In this document: piece by piece, positions 3,738-37,260 of the stretch
Layout: each line of letters begins with the position of its first letter
Numbering within the stretch: position 1 is the first letter of the stretch
Source: a bacterium
GTDB lineage: Bacteria; CG2-30-53-67
DNA length: 48,283 nt
Assembly: GCA_024277725.1 (NCBI GenBank)
Contig: JAJRUP010000013.1
Location: 1 to 48,283 of the forward strand
Direction of reading: 5' to 3'
Notes under the pieces: model-generated
The model's database searches: none
Seen by the model: the letters and a program-made list of their open reading frames with translations, nothing else
What the model was told of the DNA's origin: nothing
Position numbers and translations under genes: made by a program

Positions 3738-3818
3738 TGTTCAAGCAGTTTAAACCGTTCAACCGGCTCAAACCGTTTAGAGCGCTTGAACTGCTTAAAC
3801 AGTTTGAACGTTTTAAAC
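3738..3818. repeat. Degenerate 9-bp tandem repeat (about 9 units, consensus NGTTTAAAC), self-complementary
   Basis: Units tgttcaagc agtttaaac cgttcaacc ggctcaaac cgtttagag cgcttgaac tgcttaaac agtttgaac gttttaaac lie between convergent genes. Confidence 0.8.
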
Positions 3819-5417
3819 GACGATTGCCACACCGCCCCTGCGGTGGTCTCCGGCCCCCGCCATCCTGTCTGAACCCGGCATCCGGGTTACGGCATGGACC
3901 CCTCCGAAGAAGAGATTGGTTTCTTTCCAGCGAATCCGTTTTGCAGGATCGCAGAGGTGGGCGGCAATCTGCGCCTCGATCCCCGGCTCCTGGTTCAGCA
4001 CTCCCTGCTCCCAGTGAATCCGCGGGGCATTTACGACCTCCCGGATCTCCATCTTAAAATCGATCAGGTTGACAATCGACTGGACGATGGCGGAACGGAT
4101 CCGGTTGCTTCCGCCGCTTCCGAGGACCGCCACCGGGTCCGCACCCTGCAGGATGATGGTGGGGGCCATCATGGACGATACCCGTCGGCCCGGTGCGTGT
4201 TGATGAAACCCGCCGGGGTTCAGGTCTTCTTCTCCGAGCATGTTGTTCAGCATGATGCCGGTGTCGGGGAGAAAGATCCCCGATCCCTCACCGTTCGATG
4301 CCGTCATGGAAGCGGCGTTCCCGAATGGATCCAGAATGCTGATGTGGGTGGTGCTGGAACTGCCGCCGGAAAGATCCATTTCCTCCGGGTGGGGGCTTTC
4401 TCCCTTCAACAGGCGGTGGAGCTGCCGCCTGTATTTTGCGATCCTTTTCGGCAAGAGAAACTCCGGAAACTCCTCCGGCCGATCTTCCGGAAGCCTCTGC
4501 CAGGATTCCCGGACGGCATTGGTGATCTGCATGGCACCGATGAGGGCATTGAGAACGGAGGCACACTGCCGGGCGTCTGCTGAAAGATTGATGTCCTCGA
4601 GGAGCTTCAGGCAGAGTGCGATCAAGGCACCTCCTGTCGAGGGCGGTGGATTGGTGAGGATCCTGTAACCCCGGTATTCAAATACCAGAGGGGAGCGGAT
4701 CCTGACCTGATAGGACCGGAGGTCTTCTCCGGTGAGGAGAAAGCCGTCATCGGAGCATGCCGTCAGTAGTTTTTCCGCAAGCGCACCTTCATAAAAAAGG
4801 GTAGGGCCCTCACGGGAAAGGGCCTCCAGTGTATCTGCAAAGTCCGGGAGGATCAGAAGGTCCCCCTCCTGCAACAATTTCCCACGGGGTGCAAAATAGC
4901 TTTTTCCCGGGTGGGTGAGCGTGAGAATCGGTTCGAGGAGAGCGATAAAATAGGCCTGGTGCAGGTTGATCACAATCCCTTGACGTGCGAGTTGTATCGC
5001 CGGTTGCAGCACATCTTCCAGGGGGAGGATGCCGTAGCGACGATGGGCTTCAAAGAGGCCGGCGATGCTGCCCGGGACGGCAACCGAAGCGGGACCGACG
5101 TGAAATTCCTGATGGGTTGTGCCGAAATTGACATTGACGGGAAAAAAATCTTTTTTCGTGGGACGATGGGGATTGCCGAGGCCGGGCATGTTGACGAAGA
5201 AGTCGAAGAGGCGTGCCTCATGACGTTCCCTGAAATAGAGGTTCAAAAAACCGCCGCCGCCTGCTGAGGTCAATGTCAGTTCCGCCAGGAAAGAGGTAAA
5301 GGCGGCGGCGACAACGGCGTCGACGGCATTTCCCCCTTGTCGCAGGATTTCGGCTCCGGTCTGTGCCGTCGCTTCGTGGCCGGCGGCAATGACTCCTTTG
5401 GCATGATGCCCCTTCAA
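3813..5417 (-). CDS. ggt: Gamma-glutamyltransferase family Ntn-hydrolase, cytoplasmic (no signal peptide)
   Basis: GGNAVDA, SAGGGGF, TTHISILD (nucleophile Thr), GIMLNNML, SSMMAP and APRIH motifs. Confidence 0.92.
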   Translation of the reverse strand: MKGHHAKGVIAAGHEATAQTGAEILRQGGNAVDAVVAAAFTSFLAELTLTSAGGGGFLNLYFRERHEARLFDFFVNMPGLGNPHRPTKKDFFPVNVNFGTTHQEFHVGPASVAVPGSIAGLFEAHRRYGILPLEDVLQPAIQLARQGIVINLHQAYFIALLEPILTLTHPGKSYFAPRGKLLQEGDLLILPDFADTLEALSREGPTLFYEGALAEKLLTACSDDGFLLTGEDLRSYQVRIRSPLVFEYRGYRILTNPPPSTGGALIALCLKLLEDINLSADARQCASVLNALIGAMQITNAVRESWQRLPEDRPEEFPEFLLPKRIAKYRRQLHRLLKGESPHPEEMDLSGGSSSTTHISILDPFGNAASMTASNGEGSGIFLPDTGIMLNNMLGEEDLNPGGFHQHAPGRRVSSMMAPTIILQGADPVAVLGSGGSNRIRSAIVQSIVNLIDFKMEIREVVNAPRIHWEQGVLNQEPGIEAQIAAHLCDPAKRIRWKETNLFFGGVHAVTRMPGSDRMAGAGDHRRGGVAIVV

Positions 5418-6625
5418 AGACCGTTTTCCTCCAGATCGTGGGTTTGGAGCAGCCGGATGACGGCCCAGCAGAGTACTTTCACCGCTTCCGGGATGGCCGC
5501 CTCATCCACGTCGAAAAGATTGCTGTGCAGGTAATGACGGGTATCCTTGGCGGGGTTCCCCGTGCCGATCCGGAAGTACGTTCCGGGAACTTTTTCAATA
5601 TAGGAAGAGAAGTCTTCGCCGCCGAGGGAGGGCTCCTGGAGGGAGACGACCCGGTCGTCGCCGAGGATCTCCACAGCGCTTTGCTCCAGGATGCGGGTGA
5701 TGACGGGATGATTGTTCAGCGGCGGAGAGCCCCGGTCGATATTCAGGCGGTAGCGTCCTCCCATCCCCTCCGTAATGCCCCGGACCTTTTTTTCGATCTG
5801 TTCCATGATCAGGTCCCGGGTTTTGTTGAAGGTTGCCCGGATTGTTCCGCGCAACTCCACGTGATCACAGATGACGTTTTCGGCGGATCCTCCCCGGATC
5901 ATCCCGATCGAAACCACCGCCGGATGGACCGGGTCGATCCGGCTGCTCACGATCAGGTGCAGGGCATGGATGACCATGGCGGCGATCGAGATGGCATCGA
6001 CGGCGAGATGCGGTTTGGCGGCGTGGCCGGTTTTTCCATAAATATGAATCGAGAAGAGATCCGCCGAGGCCATCATTACCCCCTCCTTGAGTCCGATAAC
6101 ACCTGTGGGAAGAAGAGGGAAGCTGTGAAAACCGAGCATCACGGAGACGGGGGGATTCTCCAGGACACCGGCCCGGATCATCCGGTCGGCCCCCAGGACC
6201 CGCTCTTCGCAGGGTTGAAAGATGAACTTGACATTCCCCTTCAGTTTGTCGCGATACTGCGAAAGGACTTGGGCCGCACCGATGAGAGTGGCCATATGAA
6301 GGTCATGGCCGCAGGCATGCATGACGCCGGGGACCTTGGAACAATAGGAGGTCTCTTTCATGTCCTGGATCGGCAGGGCATCCATGTCGGCCCGGATCCC
6401 GATGGTGCGTCCAGGTCCGACACCGCGCAAAAGCGCCGTAACACCGGTCATGGCAATGCCGGCTTCCACCTCAAGGTTCATCTCACAAAGGCGGTCGCGA
6501 AGCAGCGCAGCCGTCCGGACCTCTTTGTTCCCAAGTTCGGGATGCTGATGAAAGTGTCTTCGAAGTGCGACCAGTTCCTCCTGGATGGCATGGACCTTTT
6601 CTTTGATGTCTTCGACGTCGATCAT
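5414..6625 (-). CDS. M20D family amidohydrolase (HipO/AbgB-like)
   Basis: HQHPELG, RADMDALP, MHACGHD, FQPCEE, GHAAKPH and GEDF motifs. Confidence 0.93.
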   Translation of the reverse strand: MIDVEDIKEKVHAIQEELVALRRHFHQHPELGNKEVRTAALLRDRLCEMNLEVEAGIAMTGVTALLRGVGPGRTIGIRADMDALPIQDMKETSYCSKVPGVMHACGHDLHMATLIGAAQVLSQYRDKLKGNVKFIFQPCEERVLGADRMIRAGVLENPPVSVMLGFHSFPLLPTGVIGLKEGVMMASADLFSIHIYGKTGHAAKPHLAVDAISIAAMVIHALHLIVSSRIDPVHPAVVSIGMIRGGSAENVICDHVELRGTIRATFNKTRDLIMEQIEKKVRGITEGMGGRYRLNIDRGSPPLNNHPVITRILEQSAVEILGDDRVVSLQEPSLGGEDFSSYIEKVPGTYFRIGTGNPAKDTRHYLHSNLFDVDEAAIPEAVKVLCWAVIRLLQTHDLEENGL

Positions 6626-7734
6626 GGCTTCATTTTCTCCATCAGGTCATCGACGACCGCAAGGAGGCTGCCGGTTTTTTCAAAGACCCGGAGTTGATGA
6701 TGGGCGCTGGTTCCCTGTGAGAAAATCCGGTCGACCTGTTCCAGATAGGGGAGAGTCCCCAGTGTGCCGGCTGTGTCGTTCAGACGGGTCAGGAGGTTTT
6801 TCACGGCCCGGCGGATGGGGATTGTCCGGTGGGTCGTATAATCGATAAAATAGCCGTCGAGACCGTGTCGTGCCGCCTGCCACCGGTTTTCCTCCACCAG
6901 CTGGCGCAGTGGAATCCCGGGGAGTTCCTTCCGGTCGTAGAGCCTGCAGAGCCAGACGACGAGGGTCTGGATCAACGCCGTCAGGATCAGCATGTCCTCC
7001 ACCGTTGAGGGAGAGTCACAAACACGCACCTCAACCGTGCCGAAGGTCGGATGGGGTCGTGCCTCCCACCAGATCTCCCGGGTGCTCTCGATCGTCCGGG
7101 TGGAAATGAGAATTTCTACGAGTTTCTCAAATTCCACCCAGTTTTTGATCCGGGGCGGCAGACCCGCCGTTGGAAGGACTTCAAAGATGTTGATCCGGGA
7201 AGAGTACAAACCGGTGTTGTATCCGCACCAGAAGGGGGAACTGGTCGAAAGGGCCAACAGATGGGGCAGATACCCTCGCAGGATGTTGAGAGTTGCCGTT
7301 GTCTTGTCTCCGTCGCTGATCCCGATGTGCACATGAAAGCCGCAGATGTTCAGGCGCCGTCCCAAAATCTGGAACTCTTTTTGCAAACGCTGGTACCGTG
7401 GGTCGGGCGTGACAATCTGATTCTTCCAGGAGGAAGAAGGATGCGTGGAGGCGCACAGGAGGCCCAGCCCCTGTTCTTCTGCGATCTTGTGGGTCAGGGC
7501 AAACAATTCCCGGAGATTGTCCTCAACCTCTTTCGGGTTGTGACAGATGCGGGTGTTGACCTCCAGGGTGGATTGAGTAAACTCCGGTTTGATCCGTTCA
7601 TGGAGGGACGGAGGAACCCGCTCAAGGATATCGAAAATTCTTGAGGCAAGATGGCGTGTCTTTCGATCCACAATCTGCATTTCCACTTCAACGCCGATGG
7701 TGGGTCCCTCTGAGCCGTTGAATGGAAGGGCCAT
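6622..7734 (-). CDS. ybdK: YbdK-family carboxylate-amine ligase (glutamate--cysteine ligase 2)
   Basis: TIGVEVEMQIVD, STHP, CGFHVHIG, ALSTSSPFW and WWEARPHPTFGTVEVRVCD motifs; ATG 7734 with AAGGTG SD. Confidence 0.9.
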   Translation of the reverse strand: MALPFNGSEGPTIGVEVEMQIVDRKTRHLASRIFDILERVPPSLHERIKPEFTQSTLEVNTRICHNPKEVEDNLRELFALTHKIAEEQGLGLLCASTHPSSSWKNQIVTPDPRYQRLQKEFQILGRRLNICGFHVHIGISDGDKTTATLNILRGYLPHLLALSTSSPFWCGYNTGLYSSRINIFEVLPTAGLPPRIKNWVEFEKLVEILISTRTIESTREIWWEARPHPTFGTVEVRVCDSPSTVEDMLILTALIQTLVVWLCRLYDRKELPGIPLRQLVEENRWQAARHGLDGYFIDYTTHRTIPIRRAVKNLLTRLNDTAGTLGTLPYLEQVDRIFSQGTSAHHQLRVFEKTGSLLAVVDDLMEKMKP

Positions 7735-7904
7735 TTGCACCTTTTGGATTGACGAGAATCCCCTTCGGGGATGCGCATGCTTCCAATGAAGTCCCGCAAC
7801 GATTTTCTTTTATACTATCGAATGTTCCGGCGGAATTCAAGCGGAGTCTTTGTCCCGGAATGAGAAGCAGGCGGGGTTGTTTTTCATATCGGTATGATTC
7901 ACCG

Positions 7905-7932
7905 TTGACATTCGGTATTCGAACTGTATATA
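7905..7932 (+). promoter_or_regulatory. Putative sigma70 promoter for the serA-like gene
   Basis: TTGACA at 7905-7910, 16-bp spacer, TATATA; SD AAGGAG before ATG 7964. Confidence 0.4.
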
Positions 7933-7963
7933 TGAGGAAGAAAACAATCGGAAAGGAGTTGCG

Positions 7964-9562
7964 ATGAAAATTCTGGTAGCTGCAGCCCTCGATCCGGCAG
8001 GTCTCGCCTTGCTGAAGGGTGTGGCACACGTCGAGGTTTTACCGTCTCCGGAGTGTACAACGGAAAAATTACGGCGGAAGATTGTGGAGGTCGAGGCACT
8101 GATCGCCGGCACCCGGACCCCCGTGAGCCGTGAAGTGATTGCGGCAGGAGATCGGCTTCGGGTGATCGGCCTGTTAGGGGTCGGCCGCCCGGCTCTCGAC
8201 GTGGAGGCCGCCACACGGAAAGGGGTGCTGGTTCTCCATGCACCGGGCAGTGTGACCGTCTCTGTTGCGGAGCATGCACTGGCATTGATCTTTGCGCTGG
8301 CCCGGAAGACGACGATGGCCGATGCGATCATGAAAAAGGGGAGTTGGGACCGGCAACCGTTGAAGGGACGGGAACTCCGGAAGAAGGTACTCGGGGTGAT
8401 CGGCTTCGGGGCCGTCGGTTCTCTGGTGGCGGCACGCGCCGCCGGACTGGAAATGGAGGTGGTCGTCTGCGATCCCTATCTGGCTGCCGACACGATCCGG
8501 CGGCAGGGGTTCCGGCCGGTTTTGCTGCCGGAGTTGCTGGAGTCCGCTGATGTGATCACGCTCCATGTCCCGCTCAATGTCGAAACGAGAGGGTTGAGCG
8601 GAAAGGAGGCGCTCTCCCGGATGAAGCGCGGAGTATTGCTGGTGAACTGTTCCGCCTCGGAGGTTGTCGATGAAACCGCCCTCTACGATCTTCTGATCAA
8701 GGGGCAGGTGCAAGGTTTTGCGCTTGATCTTCACCGGAAGGAACCATTGGAAGAGCATCCGCTCTATCTTTCCGACCGGGTGATTTGCACTCCCGAACTT
8801 TCCGCCTATACGGAAGAAGCCCTCAGCGGCGGATCGATGGAGATATCGAACTCCGTTATCGATTACCTGAAACGGGGGATCATTTCCCACGCCGTTAACC
8901 TGCCCGGCGGAGAACGGACAGGCGCTCCGGGGGATGTCCTCTGGCTTGACCTGGGCGAAGCGCTGGGACAGTTCGTCAGTCAGCTCCACCCCTACGGAAT
9001 CCAGGAGGTGATCGTTGAATGCGCCGGGGAAGATGGACTGCCGGGTATCTCTGCGTTGACCCAGGCAATCCTGGCGGGACTTTTGCATCCCGTCGTCGGG
9101 GACCGGGTCAATCGTGTCAATGCCCGAAGCCTTGCCGAAGAAAGAGGAATCCGGATTTCCGAAATGCGGAAAAGTACCAGCCCGAATTACCGGAAACTGG
9201 TGACGGTAAGGGTGAAAACCGATCCGGAGGAAGGAGAAGTCTCCGGCACCCTCTTGGATGATCGTATTCCCCGGATTGTCCGGATCGACGGATTCGATCT
9301 GGAGGCCGTACCCGACGGGGATTTTCTCGTCATCTTCAACCGGGACCGGCCCGGTGTGATCGCCGATGTCGGGGAAGCGCTGGGTCGGCACGGAATCAAT
9401 ATCGCCCAGATGTACAACGGCCGGGATGCGGTGGGCGGAAAGGCGATTACCCTGCTGTGTGTGGATGCAACGGTTTCCGGGGAGACGCTTAATGAGATCC
9501 GGGCATTTCCGAATATTCTGACGGCGTTGCATGTGAATCTGCAGGGCGCCGTCTCCCGGTAA
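7964..9562 (+). CDS. Type I D-3-phosphoglycerate dehydrogenase homologue (ASB + ACT domains), probably catalytically inactive
   Basis: Full SerA architecture (AEH, GxELxxKxLGVIGFG, TLHVP, ACT NRDRPGVI), but NCARG is NCSAS and TPH is TPE. Confidence 0.85.
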   Translation: MKILVAAALDPAGLALLKGVAHVEVLPSPECTTEKLRRKIVEVEALIAGTRTPVSREVIAAGDRLRVIGLLGVGRPALDVEAATRKGVLVLHAPGSVTVSVAEHALALIFALARKTTMADAIMKKGSWDRQPLKGRELRKKVLGVIGFGAVGSLVAARAAGLEMEVVVCDPYLAADTIRRQGFRPVLLPELLESADVITLHVPLNVETRGLSGKEALSRMKRGVLLVNCSASEVVDETALYDLLIKGQVQGFALDLHRKEPLEEHPLYLSDRVICTPELSAYTEEALSGGSMEISNSVIDYLKRGIISHAVNLPGGERTGAPGDVLWLDLGEALGQFVSQLHPYGIQEVIVECAGEDGLPGISALTQAILAGLLHPVVGDRVNRVNARSLAEERGIRISEMRKSTSPNYRKLVTVRVKTDPEEGEVSGTLLDDRIPRIVRIDGFDLEAVPDGDFLVIFNRDRPGVIADVGEALGRHGINIAQMYNGRDAVGGKAITLLCVDATVSGETLNEIRAFPNILTALHVNLQGAVSR

Positions 9563-11822
9563 AGCCTCGGAGAAATTGCAGGACCTCCCGGTGGACGGCG
9601 GAACCCTTCTCCAGGATGATGACATGCCGGTCCGTATCCACCATGACCAGCTTCTTTTCCTGTGATGCGATCCCTTCGTAGATCATCTTCGCGCTGACGG
9701 AATCGACCGTCGGGTCCTCTTTTCCCTGGATGATCAAGGCAGGGCAATAGACTTCCGGCAGTACTTCTTCCGTCCTCTCCATGGTATGCTGGAATTCCTT
9801 GAGGGCGCTGATCGGAATATTCTGGTAGTTGATCTCCGGATTTTCCGGATCGCCCCGTGTGAAACGCTTGATACCGTCGAGGTAGGGCAGGACACTGACT
9901 AACTGATTGATTCGGTGGACGAGACCGGCGAAGAAGATGTTCTTGTCGCGGATCTTCAGCGGCGTAGAGATCGTAACGAGACCGTCTACTACGTTTCCCT
10001 TTTCTTCCGCCAGCATGAGCGCCAGATTCCCTCCCATGGAAAAGCCGATAACCACGACCTTCTCACAGACCTTGCGCAGGACATCCCACCCCCGAAGGGT
10101 GGAACGGTACCATTGGCTCAGGGTTCGAAAATCAAGATCACAGGGGGAAGTCCCGTGTCCTTTCAGGCGGACGCCGTAAACCCCGAAGCCCTGTGACGAG
10201 AGAAATTCACCGAGGGGACGTATCTCGGCAGGGGATGCCGTAAATCCGTGGATCAACAGGATCCCGACATCCTGCGAGCTGTGATCGGCGGGGGGGAAGA
10301 AGAAAGGGGCGCCGGAGAAGGTTTTCGTTTCCTGCCGGTTGATCTCGTCATATTTCGCCGCACAGAAGATGTCTCGGTCTCTTTCGTAACTGCGCAGGTC
10401 ATCGTCATAGAGCATTGCCGCACAGGATCGGGGTTGGTTGAGCTTGTCGAAATGGGTCAGCACCTCCCGGATGGCTTTCCGAATGGCCGGGATGGGCCGC
10501 ACTTCGTTATAGCGAACCTTCAGGAAGTTTTTGATCCGGATTTCATCAAAATCGTATTCTTCCCCCAGGGCCGGGAGAAAGAAGTAACGGTCTTCCCGGA
10601 TCCGGATCAGGCCGACGGCGGCCGCCTGCAGAAGGATGTCCCGGATGTCCCGATTGTTGTGGGAGAGCAGGGAGTCGTAGCGATCCGGGTTCAACAGACT
10701 GCGGTGCAGAAAAACCTGTTCCGATTTCTGGACCTTCTTGATCGTCATATAGAGCGCCTGGTCGAAGAAGTCCCGGGAGACTTCCCGCTGCTTGTAATGT
10801 TGGAGCAGCTCAAAGATCAGTTCCGCACAAAGGTGCCCGATGTTCACGGTAATAAGGGAATAGATCGATTGCATGTAATCGACCATGATCCGTTCGGAAA
10901 GGATCTCCGATCGGATCATCTCCATCCGTGTCAGCAGTCGGGAGGAGGCACTCTTGAGAATACGTCTTTTCTCAACAAAGTACCGTGTGCGCAGCAACGA
11001 GACATCGGTTCGTTTGAAGTAGTCCGGGATCTCGATCGGCTTTCCCAGGCGGATGTCCATATCCGTATCCTTGAAAAGGATATTCCCCTCGATGATCAGT
11101 TCCTCTTCCATCCGTTCATTGGTGATCTTTCCGAGGCGTTCCGCCACCTTGATCAGAAAGTTTTCATCGCCCCGCAGAGGGTAGAAGGTGATATTGGCCG
11201 GTACGATCCGAACGGGTTCGGAGGCGATCTCCAGTGCCCGGTCGATATCCTCGGCATGGAGCATGGCTGCGATCTCGTTCATCTTCTGATCGTTTTTCCG
11301 TTCATAGGCCAGACGGAAGAGATCCCGGATCTGTTGGGCATAGAGGGCGATCACGGCGGCGCCGGTATGGGGTTTTCGGTATTTCCCTTTTTCACGGGAA
11401 TAGATGCGAAAGCGTCCTTTCGGCCCCAGAACCCGGCGGTTCTTGATCATCGCCCCTTCCGGGAAGATCACCGCCTTGTATCCCCGGTTGATCTCGCAGG
11501 CCATGAAATGGATGACATTCTCCAGGTCGGTCGGGATGGCACCGATCCCTGCCAGGTAATGTCCGAAGGCACCATCGTTGAAAAGTTCCGGTGCCGCCAG
11601 TGAGCGGCACATGATCCCCGTGTGGTCATAGATCAGATATTGGGGGATAAAGGTCTCGAAACGGGCGAAGTGATTGAAGAGGAAGATATCCCCTTGCCGG
11701 AACTGATCTTCCAGATTGTGAAGCTTGATATTGACCTTCAGGAACCGGCGCAGGATGTCGAGAACCAGCCGCGTCTTCTTGTAACTCTTTTCATTGATGA
11801 TGAGGTCTTTCTCCGACACCAT
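9489..11822 (-). CDS. Glycerolipid acyltransferase (PlsB/PlsC-like) fused to C-terminal alpha/beta-hydrolase (carboxylesterase/monoacylglycerol lipase-like)
   Basis: N-terminal FNHFARFE and IFPEG blocks; C-terminal LIHGFTASP, GFSMGG nucleophile elbow, DPTV and RHVI. Confidence 0.8.
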   Translation of the reverse strand: MVSEKDLIINEKSYKKTRLVLDILRRFLKVNIKLHNLEDQFRQGDIFLFNHFARFETFIPQYLIYDHTGIMCRSLAAPELFNDGAFGHYLAGIGAIPTDLENVIHFMACEINRGYKAVIFPEGAMIKNRRVLGPKGRFRIYSREKGKYRKPHTGAAVIALYAQQIRDLFRLAYERKNDQKMNEIAAMLHAEDIDRALEIASEPVRIVPANITFYPLRGDENFLIKVAERLGKITNERMEEELIIEGNILFKDTDMDIRLGKPIEIPDYFKRTDVSLLRTRYFVEKRRILKSASSRLLTRMEMIRSEILSERIMVDYMQSIYSLITVNIGHLCAELIFELLQHYKQREVSRDFFDQALYMTIKKVQKSEQVFLHRSLLNPDRYDSLLSHNNRDIRDILLQAAAVGLIRIREDRYFFLPALGEEYDFDEIRIKNFLKVRYNEVRPIPAIRKAIREVLTHFDKLNQPRSCAAMLYDDDLRSYERDRDIFCAAKYDEINRQETKTFSGAPFFFPPADHSSQDVGILLIHGFTASPAEIRPLGEFLSSQGFGVYGVRLKGHGTSPCDLDFRTLSQWYRSTLRGWDVLRKVCEKVVVIGFSMGGNLALMLAEEKGNVVDGLVTISTPLKIRDKNIFFAGLVHRINQLVSVLPYLDGIKRFTRGDPENPEINYQNIPISALKEFQHTMERTEEVLPEVYCPALIIQGKEDPTVDSVSAKMIYEGIASQEKKLVMVDTDRHVIILEKGSAVHREVLQFLRGFTGRRRPADSHATPSEYSEMPGSH

Positions 11823-12008: not shown

Positions 12009-12980
12009 TTGGCGGAAAAGCGTGCACAGACCCTTCTGAGTGTCGACCCGGCCAATATGCCTCTTCTTTACGGGCGCAATGATGAGAATCTTGACCTGAT
12101 CGAGAAGCTTTTCAAGATCCGGATTTCCGCCCGGGGCAAAAAGATGGAGCTTCGCGGAGAGACGGAAAGGGTGGACCAGGCCCGGAATGCCCTGGAGGAA
12201 TTGAACCGTTCCCTTTCCAACGGGACGATCCAGGCCGAAGATATGGGGTTTGCCATTCGCGCCCTGGCCGACCATGGCAAAGTAGTGCTGACGGAACTGC
12301 TCAGCGGGGGGATTCGTGTTCCCTCCCGCAAGAAGGTGATCCTCCCCAAGACCCCGGCCCAGCGCAGGTATATTGATGCAATCCGGCGTTACGACGTGGT
12401 CCTCGGGATCGGACCGGCGGGGACCGGCAAGACCTACCTGGCGATGGCCATGGCCGTTTCCGCTTTGTCCAACCAGGAGGTGGGGCGGATTATCCTGACC
12501 CGTCCGGCGGTGGAGGCGGGTGAACACCTTGGCTTTCTTCCCGGCGATCTTTATCAGAAAATCCATCCCTATCTGCGTCCCCTCTATGATGCGTTGTACG
12601 ATATGATGGATCCCGACCGGGCGAACCGGCTGATCGAGCGGGGAACAATCGAAATTGCACCGTTGGCGTATATGCGCGGCCGTACTCTGAATGACTCCTT
12701 CATTATCCTCGATGAGGGACAGAACACGACCCGGGAGCAGATGAAGATGTTTCTGACTCGTCTCGGATTCAATTCCCGGGTTGTGTTGACGGGGGATATT
12801 ACCCAGGTCGATCTTCCGAAGGAAAAGCGTTCCGGTCTGATCCATGCCAAGGAGATCCTGGATGGAATTACGGGAATCCGGATCTCGCTTTTTTCGAATA
12901 AAGATGTGATCCGTCACAAACTGGTGCAGGACATCATCCGGGCCTATGAGAAAGATGAAAAAGTGACGGAAGAGAAATGA
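12009..12980 (+). CDS. phoH: PhoH-like ATPase (KH + PhoH; YbeZ type)
   Basis: [32 protein letters not shown] and DEGQN motifs. Confidence 0.95.
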
Positions 12981-37183: not shown

Positions 37184-37260
37184 AGGCGGTTAGCTCAGTT
37201 GGTTAGAGCGCCACGTTGACATCGTGGAGGTCGCTGGTTCAACTCCAGTACCGCCTACCA
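37184..37260 (+). tRNA. tRNA-Val (GAC)
   Basis: Acceptor AGGCGGT/ACCGCCT, D-arm TAGCTCAGTTGGTTAGAGC, anticodon arm CCACG-TTGACAT-CGTGG, T-loop TTCAACT, encoded CCA. Confidence 0.97.

Follow-up and report, generated by a model that had tools for sequence, protein, structure and literature searches.

Type-I phosphoglycerate dehydrogenases (PGDHs) are tetramers built through contacts of the NAD domain and of the ACT and ASB domains. Regulation of active paralogues by pseudoenzymes is, to our knowledge, amply described for eukaryotes but has received little attention in the core metabolism of bacteria. In the sections of PMC6303947 that bear on the matter, Arg, Glu and His are given as the catalytic triad of the D-2-hydroxyacid dehydrogenases (2HADHs), and the exceptions named there are X4, in which the His has become Trp and the Glu is lost, and SERA of type IIIK, in which the His has become Lys; the same sections describe ANGUSTIFOLIA as a protein lacking catalytic residues. 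Dead paralogues which regulate active ones via hetero-oligomers are known from the AdoMetDC prozyme (PMC5201418) and from the deoxyhypusine synthase heterotetramer (PMC3663545).

The window, a stretch of 48,283 nucleotides (contig JAJRUP010000013.1, assembly GCA_024277725.1), carries a SerA-like gene in which the active site of such an enzyme has been dismantled. The features of this gene are as follows.

7897..7912, forward strand: intergenic block ATTCACCGTTGACATT, identical across 3 same-genus genomes
7954..7958, forward strand: Shine-Dalgarno sequence AGGAG, 5 nt upstream of the ATG
7964..9562, forward strand: SerA-like coding sequence, 532 aa, type-I PGDH paralogue with a dismantled active site (ORF list, Pfam, alignment)
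8108..8113, forward strand: codons 49-50, Gly-Thr against canonical Arg-Ser of VRS (R 100% and S 100% of 103)
8171..8194, forward strand: codons 70-77, LLGVGRPA against canonical RAGxGxDN (R70 99%, A71 100%, N77 99%)
8279..8794, forward strand: NAD-binding domain, 2-Hacid_dh_C, residues 106-277 (Pfam, clade alignment)
8654..8656, forward strand: codon 231, GCC, Ala replacing the catalytic Arg (clade A 14, T 2, E 1; canonical R 99%)
8795..8797, forward strand: codon 278, GAA, Glu replacing the catalytic His (clade N 8, D 5, E 2, A 1, G 1; canonical H 100%)
8942..9286, forward strand: ASB or PGDH intervening domain, residues 327-441 (Pfam)
9326..9511, forward strand: ACT domain, residues 455-516 (Pfam), where the clade is best conserved

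A preliminary description of this DNA, made from its letters, had reported an intact frame of 532 residues, a strong Shine-Dalgarno sequence and all four type-I PGDH domains, and this was borne out: the frame opens with an ATG, AGGAG precedes it, and Pfam places 2-Hacid_dh at residues 3-312 in addition to 2-Hacid_dh_C, PGDH_inter and ACT at the positions listed. The longer AAGGAG is invariant across the 3 same-genus genomes, and ATTCACCGTTGACATT includes a -35-like hexamer, TTGACA (7905-7910), about 55 nt ahead of the start, which may mark the promoter of the gene. A consensus scan for promoters and terminators around the gene gave nothing above shuffled sequences and did not call the TTGACA block a promoter, and Rfam, run over the whole window, matched a single tRNA and nothing else. 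One metatranscriptome run yielded no contig covering the stretch. By overall similarity the protein passes as an ordinary enzyme, scoring 494.8 bits against the PGDH equivalog TIGR01327 (curated cut-off 454), being named 'phosphoglycerate dehydrogenase' in the source databases and retrieving ordinary PGDH clusters only in the ESM Atlas. Its AF2 model (pLDDT 88.5, pTM 0.78) finds the M. tuberculosis PGDH structures 3dc2, 3ddn and 1ygy as top Foldseek matches (E about 1e-47), with the catalytic unit superposing at a TM of 0.91-0.93 and an rmsd of 2.0-2.3 A. A weak match to TIGR00719 raised the candidate of an L-serine dehydratase beta-subunit, which was dropped, no sda_alpha being present in the genome.

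The residues lost were located by a residue-by-residue alignment with M. tuberculosis PGDH (1ygy/3ddn; E 4.7e-79), which confirmed the losses proposed in the preliminary description. Thus the catalytic His is Glu278 and the Arg of NCARG is Ala231, and the VRS and GRAGVGVDN motifs are replaced as claimed: from the M. tuberculosis enzyme to the SerA-like protein, LLVRSATTV becomes LIAGTRTPV, ARAGVGLDNVD becomes GLLGVGRPALD, NAARGG becomes NCSASE and TPHLGAS becomes TPELSAY. The GN motif of canonical enzymes is likewise replaced, by S96-V97, as is Q287. The substrate motifs thus read G49-T50, L70, P76-A77 and S96-V97 at positions conserved in at least 88% of 103 canonical homologues, and in at least 95% apart from D76 (88%, the remainder Glu). 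The Arg-Ser of VRS, the Arg of GRAG, and the DN and GN positions, all of which we take to be phosphate- and substrate-binding, are therefore not those of the enzyme in this protein, and the residues that would hold 3-phosphoglycerate have been exchanged mostly for conserved hydrophobic or small ones. Of the triad it keeps E260, with A231 and E278 standing in place of Arg and His. Identical codons 231 and 278, with zero indels, are seen in contigs that come from the public runs of two studies.

These losses are not peculiar to the present copy. When 17 members of the SerA-like clade (52-85% identity) were compared with the 103 canonical homologues, both the Arg and the His were found to be lost in 17/17, as the preliminary description had proposed to check, whereas the canonical set retains them at 99-100%. 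Altogether, some 16 positions, each at least 90% conserved in the canonical set, are jointly replaced in all members of the clade, which, judged from the alignment, is far beyond chance. Type-I PGDHs with other variants of the active site were seen as well. The members of the clade form a monophyletic group (SH-aLRT 100) with a long stem branch, which was found in a single family only, of a lineage that has not been cultured; in the tree the group does not stand next to the canonical SerA of that family, a placement on a long branch for which the tree tool issued a long-branch warning. Former catalytic positions vary within the clade, with N, D, E, A or G at 278, Glu at 260 in 7 members only, and G, E, D or T at 49, and so constraint has been lost precisely there. 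Accordingly, the claim that the Glu of the EP motif is kept stood for this protein (E260), but not as a trait of the clade, the same Glu being present in 100% of canonical enzymes. With Arg and His gone, the Glu unconstrained and the residues that hold 3-phosphoglycerate replaced, canonical oxidation of this substrate is not expected, and the protein is almost certainly, to judge by its sequence, incapable of the PGDH reaction.

Other positions have become fixed. Replacements in the cleft are conserved (L70 and L256 in 15/17, S96 and V97 in 16/17, S230 in 17/17, A231 in 14/17), H265, Y268, L269 and S270 are new near-invariant residues, and, as counted by hand from the alignment blocks, 14 of the 17 members have His at 257 and 13 of the 17 have Arg at 75. 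The conserved cleft replacements, with H265, Y268, L269 and S270, could mean a new pocket or chemistry and not an empty cleft.

The remainder of the protein has been retained and in part re-specified. GFGAVG, AEH, TLHVP and the ACT motif NRDRPGVI...INIA are present, as had been described. The glycines of GxxGxGxxG (G144/G147/G149/G152) and D170, whose roles in NAD(H) binding and specificity are treated in section 8 of PMC6303947, are invariant, and H201, P203, T208 and D255 are also common to the clade and the canonical enzymes, as are N459, D461 and N479 of the ACT domain. In contrast to the claim that only catalytic and substrate residues had changed, which proved inexact, the clade also gained conserved residues in the ASB domain (W327, H342, P343, P360, R402, R410, G424, D432) and in the ACT domain (F458, R460, A467 where canonical enzymes have G in 98%, D468, Y484, N485, D488, T496). 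Identities of the substrate lobe, NAD, ASB and ACT domains are 0.49, 0.58, 0.54 and 0.68 for clade pairs less than 65% identical, and 0.54, 0.57, 0.44 and 0.41 for canonical pairs at 45-65%, a comparison only roughly matched, the clade being one family and the canonical sample many phyla. On these identities constraint has shifted: within the clade the ACT domain is conserved best and the substrate lobe worst, and canonical enzymes show the opposite trend.

This distribution of constraint bears on whether the gene might encode a neo-functionalised enzyme, which would use the 2HADH scaffold and the NAD pocket for another chemistry, probably on a less polar substrate, with its catalytic residues relocated. 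Such an enzyme would agree with cleft replacements that are conserved and show no drift, with a NAD motif kept in full, and with the position of H265, Y268, L269 and S270 near the former active-site loops, and H257 and R75 might be called upon as well; moreover, the part of PMC6303947 on type IIIK reports an active PGDH whose catalytic residue is not His. However, the triad positions vary within the clade, no substituting Lys, His or Arg is invariant, neither H257 nor R75, and the move of constraint from the substrate lobe to ACT and ASB runs contrary to the one expected with a new catalytic site, so that we regard this explanation as unlikely, though still to be reckoned with.

The SerA-like gene is under purifying selection. 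Within the genus its dN/dS takes values of 0.149, 0.188 and 0.174; for genomes G006-G008 it is 0.124, and none of the four domains exceeds 0.27, compared with 0.04-0.14 for neighbouring genes and 0.046-0.075 for canonical SerA. The preliminary description had asked whether the ratio lies below 1, and named a neutrally evolving copy with orthologues keeping His and Arg as the outcome that would speak against it; that outcome is absent, with values of 0.12-0.19 and the losses shared throughout the clade. A decaying gene, an incipient pseudogene evolving neutrally, might be read from a dN roughly threefold that of canonical SerA and from orthologue G008/P0016, which has lost about 23-27 residues in frame where the ASB and ACT domains meet, but the frame is intact at 7/7 full loci and full length in 6/7, 96 columns are invariant across the clade, and a near-identical strain (X1 contig) differs in 19 codons, of which 14 are synonymous and 5 change the amino acid, and shows no indels; decay is hardly credible. 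Two marks of a pseudoenzyme, a loss of catalytic residues conserved among orthologues and purifying selection on the coding sequence, were thus found.

A second serA had been proposed as a check, and its outcome was divided. Canonical SerA, with the motifs VIRSATKI, GRAGAGLDNVD, NCARGG and TPHLGAS, is present in 5/5 other genomes carrying the SerA-like copy, both same-genus genomes included; the paralogue of genome G002 scores 685.3 bits against TIGR01327. Nothing in the canonical SerA points to impairment: its motifs are complete and its dN/dS is about 0.05. The assembly to which the window belongs, estimated from marker genes to be 99.4% complete, gave no other TIGR01327 or strong 2-Hacid_dh_C match. 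This single match, scoring above the equivalog cut-off, would suit the view that the SerA-like protein is the real and only SerA of the organism, with an unorthodox active site. Nevertheless, the gene order in the sister genome G002 is aminotransferase, serA, purA, and in the window's genome (G000) contig C124 breaks off within the aminotransferase gene (residues 28-233 of 422, 90% identity), while purA was not found there and control genes were found in 14/14 cases; because of this break and the missing purA, the canonical serA is expected in an assembly gap beyond the end of C124. The apparent status of only serA in the genome was therefore rejected as evidence. The checks made by computation agreed with the preliminary description, and neither of the outcomes that it had named as speaking against it arose. 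With both phosphate-binding Arg as well as the catalytic Arg and His absent, we consider it very improbable that this is the organism's SerA, and the sister genomes and the contig break suggest that canonical SerA coexists with the SerA-like protein in the window's organism too.

The genes flanking the SerA-like gene are the following.

3813..7740, reverse strand: divergent operon GCS2-M20-GGT, arranged alike at 7/7 loci examined
6622-7740, reverse strand: GCS2/YbdK-type carboxylate-amine ligase of the divergent operon
5414-6625, reverse strand: M20 amidohydrolase of the divergent operon
3813-5417, reverse strand: gamma-glutamyltransferase of the divergent operon
9489..11822, reverse strand: convergent acyltransferase and alpha/beta-hydrolase protein, 777 aa, with a 74-nt 3' overlap with the 3' end of the SerA-like gene

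The SerA-like gene is divergent from GCS2-M20-GGT at each of the 7 loci whose flanking sequence suffices, in copies as little as 52% identical, and is not adjacent to serA. In family f1, GCS2 and the SerA-like gene occur together in 6 genomes and neither was found in the 2 genomes of genus g3. Both observations would fit a non-catalytic sensor that serves these gamma-glutamyl/cysteine genes and not SerA. The adjacency is unspecific, however, since synteny across the family extends over all 15-20 kb here, with cytochrome, DsrE and PhoH among the genes included, and the sister family f2 has GCS2-M20 without a SerA-like gene; furthermore, the SerA-like gene lies on the opposite strand, apparently with its own promoter, and Pfam finds no DNA-binding domain in its product. 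Absence of the SerA-like gene from genomes G003, G004 and G007 is unusable as evidence: in G003 both flanking genes are at contig ends, with no SerA-like C-terminal fragment in the last 224 nt, and in G007 the contig stops at the flank of the locus, so that the absences in these two coincide with contig ends. A role tied to the GCS2 operon is accordingly held to be improbable.

We therefore favour, with reasonable confidence, the view that the gene encodes a catalytically dead type-I PGDH paralogue, a pseudo-dehydrogenase which is probably a non-catalytic sensor or regulatory subunit. Such a protein would bind NAD(H) at the retained Rossmann pocket and a small molecule at an ACT domain with a new set of residues around the ligand motifs, and would signal through oligomerisation. 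Given that PGDH tetramers form through NAD-domain and ACT/ASB contacts, canonical SerA would be the most natural partner, with the SerA-like protein as its regulatory subunit in the manner of a prozyme; alternatively, the protein would form a homotetramer and act as a sensor. The hetero-oligomer step, taken alone and argued by analogy, is possible but somewhat doubtful, and we propose only tentatively a bacterial prozyme in which mixed tetramers with SerA would gain, from the NAD(H) pocket and the re-specified ACT domain, a second allosteric input. Redox state could provide this second input to serine biosynthesis, as could some metabolite that is not serine.

If the prozyme is true, the PGDH family would have its first described pseudoenzyme subunit, and central amino-acid metabolism one of its rare bacterial cases; as a regulatory subunit or a metabolite or redox sensor, the protein would bring a new kind of control to the point where the route to serine leaves glycolysis. 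The finding has limited reach, the gene having been found in only a single family, of a lineage not yet cultured, and the clade offers a clean, testable example, with two paralogues, four domains, a retained cofactor site and a re-specified ACT site. It is also a concrete case of misannotation by score alone. A literature search found no description of a comparable form of SerA.

Among known systems, the nearest is the type-I PGDH of M. tuberculosis (PDB 1ygy, 3dc2, 3ddn), with which the protein shares substrate lobe, NAD lobe, ASB and ACT at 35-36% identity, a full-length structural match, the NAD motif and the Asp and Asn of the ACT domain. Unlike it, the SerA-like protein is without the catalytic Arg and His, two phosphate-binding Arg, DN, GN and Q287, and in its clade the Glu is not conserved, Gly467 of the ACT loop has become Ala and the conservation of the domains is inverted. 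Plant ANGUSTIFOLIA, a CtBP homologue, and animal CtBP, in the sections of PMC6303947 that treat them, have the 2HADH fold and act by binding and not by metabolism, as proposed here; they differ in being eukaryotic, of another 2HADH subfamily and without ASB and ACT, and CtBP keeps its catalytic triad. For X4 and IIIK, those passages of PMC6303947 report no loss of the catalytic Arg, whereas the SerA-like clade loses it along with the substrate-binding residues. IIIK is moreover an active enzyme, and neither X4 nor IIIK has the ASB and ACT module found here. The mechanism proposed is the same as that of the trypanosomatid prozymes, dead paralogues kept by selection (PMC5201418, PMC3663545); these are eukaryotic and of other enzyme families, and in the present case the hetero-oligomer would have to form with a canonical SerA that itself looks unimpaired.

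The SerA-like gene opens with an ATG preceded by AGGAG at 5 nt, and its product scores 494.8 bits on the PGDH equivalog TIGR01327 of NCBIfam (cut-off 454). Among solved structures, M. tuberculosis PGDH (1ygy/3ddn, E 4.7e-79) comes closest, and in the alignment with it LLVRSATTV is replaced by LIAGTRTPV, ARAGVGLDNVD by GLLGVGRPALD, NAARGG by NCSASE and TPHLGAS by TPELSAY, with Ala231 encoded by GCC (8654-8656) and Glu278 by GAA (8795-8797). The residue substitutions listed in the preliminary description were borne out in every detail by this alignment and by codons 231 and 278.

Features of the window and domains of the SerA-like protein
531-1718: multihaem cytochrome c, 395 aa
2813-3379: DsrE/DsrF-like protein, 87-94% identical across genera, most conserved gene of the block
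3813-7740, minus strand: operon of YbdK/GCS2 carboxylate-amine ligase, M20 amidohydrolase and gamma-glutamyltransferase (GGT)
7964-9562, plus strand: SerA-like coding sequence, 532 aa, intact
SerA-like protein: 2-Hacid_dh (Pfam)
Residues 106-277: 2-Hacid_dh_C (Pfam, E 1.4e-47)
Residues 327-441: PGDH_inter, the ASB domain (Pfam, E 1.4e-28)
Residues 455-516: ACT (Pfam)
12009-12980: PhoH
37184-37257: tRNA gene

When 5.8 billion clustered proteins were searched with the SerA-like protein as query, 16 further proteins of 52-85% identity were found and, after a sharp drop, ordinary PGDHs at no more than 45%. The resulting clade of 17 sequences was compared column by column with the 103 other listed hits (canonical).

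Positions at which the clade departs from canonical sequences
49: canonical R 100%; clade G 12, E 3, D 1, T 1
50: canonical S 100%; clade replaced
70: canonical R 99%; clade L 15, W 1, I 1
71: canonical A 100%; clade replaced
77: canonical N 99%; clade at least 6 different residues
96 and 97: canonical G 95% and N 99%; clade S and V (V in 16)
231: canonical R 99%; clade A 14, T 2, E 1
232-233: canonical G 100%; clade replaced
260: canonical E 100%; clade E in 7/17 only
278: canonical H 100%; clade N 8, D 5, E 2, A 1, G 1
280, 287 and 290: canonical G 98%, Q 100% and V 100%; clade replaced

The loss of Arg at 231 and of His at 278, first noted in the window alone, extends to 17/17 sequences. 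The triad positions are not merely changed but free to vary, and this variation within the clade argues that constraint there has been lost. The main rival explanation, namely that the clade represents a new enzyme, we regard as unlikely; several replacements in the former cleft are themselves conserved in the clade, and the new residues H265, Y268, L269 and S270 likewise speak in its favor. Sixty-nine positions hold one residue that is at least 90% conserved in clade and canonical sequences alike, and common to both are the pyrophosphate motif G144/G147/G149/G152, the residues D170, H201, P203, T208 and D255 and, in ACT, N459, D461, P463, G464, N479 and I480. Section 8 of PMC6303947 associates an Asp of the D170 type with NADH preference and the Gly motif with the pyrophosphate, and also gives the role of an Asp-Val pair in 2HADHs. 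The scaffold is predicted to be intact: an AlphaFold2 model from a 26-sequence alignment reached a mean pLDDT of 88.5 and a pTM of 0.78, Foldseek placed M. tuberculosis PGDH (3dc2, 3ddn, 1ygy) at the top of its PDB matches with E about 1e-47, and the catalytic unit superposed on maize, human and Pyrococcus PGDH with TM 0.91-0.93 and rmsd 2.0-2.3 A.

Constraint is distributed differently over the domains of the two groups. Between 73 clade pairs less than 65% identical and 4710 canonical pairs at 45-65%, identities were 0.49 vs 0.54 in the substrate lobe, 0.58 vs 0.57 in the NAD lobe, 0.54 vs 0.44 in ASB and 0.68 vs 0.41 in ACT, that is, the catalytic lobes are best and the regulatory domains worst conserved in canonical proteins and the order is reversed in the clade. 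Clade-specific conserved residues surround the two ACT ligand motifs (F458, R460, A467, D468, Q482, Y484, N485, D488; position 467 is Ala in the clade vs Gly in 98% of canonical sequences) and occur in ASB (W327, H342, P343, P360, R402, R410, G424, D432), suggesting that ACT and ASB may form a re-specified ligand or interface module. The orthologue of one other genome of the family, G008 (C63:8415-9929, P0016, 504 aa), lacks ~23-27 residues, in frame, where ASB meets ACT, and with them the first ACT strand; this may reflect damage to the gene in that species or an error of assembly.

Despite evolving faster than SerA, the SerA-like gene is clearly under purifying selection. Its dN/dS (Nei-Gojobori; dS 0.5-0.8, below saturation) was 0.149, 0.188 and 0.174 for the same-genus pairs G000-G001, G000-G002 and G001-G002, where G000 is the genome of the window, and 0.124 for G006-G008, two other genomes of the family, so that the ratio below 1 anticipated for orthologues was found throughout; each of the four domains remained at or below 0.27. 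In the same genomes, values were 0.08-0.09 for GCS2, 0.07-0.12 for M20, 0.14 for GGT, 0.09-0.12 for the 777-aa acyltransferase/alpha-beta-hydrolase, 0.04-0.09 for PhoH and 0.046-0.075 for canonical SerA. Between G001 and G002, dN was 0.137 vs 0.040 and amino-acid identity 78% vs 93% for SerA-like and SerA, respectively, and the paralogue is therefore ~3x faster in dN. The gene is also present, free of indels, on contigs of public runs belonging to two studies; one of these contigs, X1, covers 7600-9700 with 24 differences, none at codons 231 or 278, and within the coding sequence 14 of the 19 differing codons are synonymous. The SerA-like gene overlaps the 777-aa gene (minus strand) tail to tail over 74 nt (9489-9562), an arrangement also seen in G001 (83 nt), G002 (65 nt) and G005 (9 nt) and absent from G006, G008 and the metagenome locus L070. 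A dS of 0.31-0.37 in the ACT segment vs 0.55-0.83 in the rest of the gene fits double coding, and the overlap probably lowers dS at the extreme C-terminus; the best-conserved ACT stretch (455-500) lies outside it.

A second, canonical serA had been suggested as a check. Among 14 species of the phylum (9 genomes of the family and 5 of its sister family), the degenerate gene (at least 54% identity) is found in 6/9 genomes of the family (G000, G001, G002, G005, G006, G008), and a second copy of 523-525 aa, at 36-39% identity, accompanies it in 5/5 carriers apart from G000. The G002 copy has the motifs VIRSATKI, GRAGAGLDNVD, NCARGG and TPHLGAS, scores 685.3 bits on TIGR01327 and is flanked by a class-V-type aminotransferase gene and purA (L040, 3761-8066). 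In the G000 assembly (2.92 Mb, 252 contigs, 99.4% complete by markers), the SerA-like gene is the sole TIGR01327 match and the sole strong 2-Hacid_dh_C match (164.9 bits; next 35.6). The idea that it is the only serA of this genome was rejected: the aminotransferase counterpart (90% identity) is cut at residue 233/422 by the end of contig C124 (12666-13283), and purA was not found in G000 by protein or TIGR00184 search, controls of the latter matching in 14/14 genomes. Since near-universal purA is missing together with serA exactly past this end, the absence is attributed to a gap in the assembly rather than to loss of the genes. A single contig break here costs a MAG rated 99.4% complete no fewer than two core genes. 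The other three genomes of the family, in which the degenerate copy was not found, carry little or no information on its absence: both genes flanking the expected site sit at the ends of contigs in G003, the contig of G007 stops at the flank, and G004 is without the gene and its neighbors.

At 7/7 loci with enough flank (window, G001, G002, G005, G006, G008 and L070), the SerA-like gene is divergent from the GCS2-M20-GGT operon and convergent with the 777-aa gene. The operon, which suggests the making and turnover of a gamma-glutamyl compound and whose M20 member does not reach the cut-offs for CpsA and DoeB2, the named families, is kept across the family, and in the sister family GCS2-M20 occurs without a SerA-like gene; given region-wide synteny in the family, proximity argues only weakly for a functional connection. 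No Rfam element was found near the gene, and the three same-genus genomes share an identical upstream spacer block with TTGACA (7905-7910). The intergenic block AATGTTCCGGCGGAATTCAAG (7821-7841) hardly varies among these genomes; within it lies a short inverted repeat, TTCCG-G-CGGAA, and the block could serve the divergent genes as an operator or promoter.

The clade was found in a single uncultured family only. A scan guided by motifs and covering one genome for each of 185,579 species, which may omit records of the window's genome or near relatives, found 4 full-length members, all titled as uncultured Nitrospirae/Nitrospirota MAGs; 2 short matches were ACT-only and were discarded. A metagenome scan added the full locus L070 (52% identity), a second match being unrelated and partial, and a clade profile run against 1.84 billion 50%-identity representatives gave a single match at 912 bits, the next at 553 and then a smooth fall. 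In a 53-row tree (IQ-TREE quick search, LG+C20), for which the tool warns of long-branch effects, the 17 sequences form one group (SH-aLRT 100; stem 0.71 + 0.27 changes per site) for which the canonical SerAs of the same family are not the sister group. The branching order of genome-derived SerA-like proteins does not conflict with that of canonical SerAs, which fits vertical inheritance since the ancestor of the family. Among 149 other top type-I PGDH representatives, a quick alignment of single representatives yielded 8 full-length proteins with 1-3 of five key residues changed (P0126, P0179, P0181, P0195, P0200, P0228, P0234, P0263), for instance I, S, H or G in place of R231 and R in place of H278; P0260, the ninth row flagged, holds just an N-terminal fragment. 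The eight share 31-44% identity among themselves and 32-38% with the clade, and the type-I scaffold seems to have given rise to active-site variants on several occasions.

As far as computation goes, we conclude from the conserved losses and dN/dS that the SerA-like protein is probably a SerA paralogue that is catalytically dead and maintained by selection, with NAD(H) binding kept and ACT/ASB altered, in support of the non-catalytic, selected paralogue proposed earlier, and the clade would thereby be a pseudoenzyme within the PGDH family. Since type-I PGDHs are described as tetramers in section 22 of PMC6303947, and dead paralogues in other systems as regulating active partners within mixed oligomers in PMC5201418 and PMC3663545, co-assembly is our leading, if tentative, mechanism, in which the SerA-like protein would join canonical SerA in mixed oligomers; a homomeric NAD(H)/metabolite sensor ranks after it. 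Full-text searches of the literature open without subscription turned up no account of a catalytically dead type-I PGDH. According to PMC6303947, nearly all 2HADHs keep the Arg/Glu/His triad, the three exceptions listed there being SERA type IIIK, active with Lys in place of the catalytic His, subfamily X4, in which this His is Trp, and plant AN, which is without the catalytic residues.
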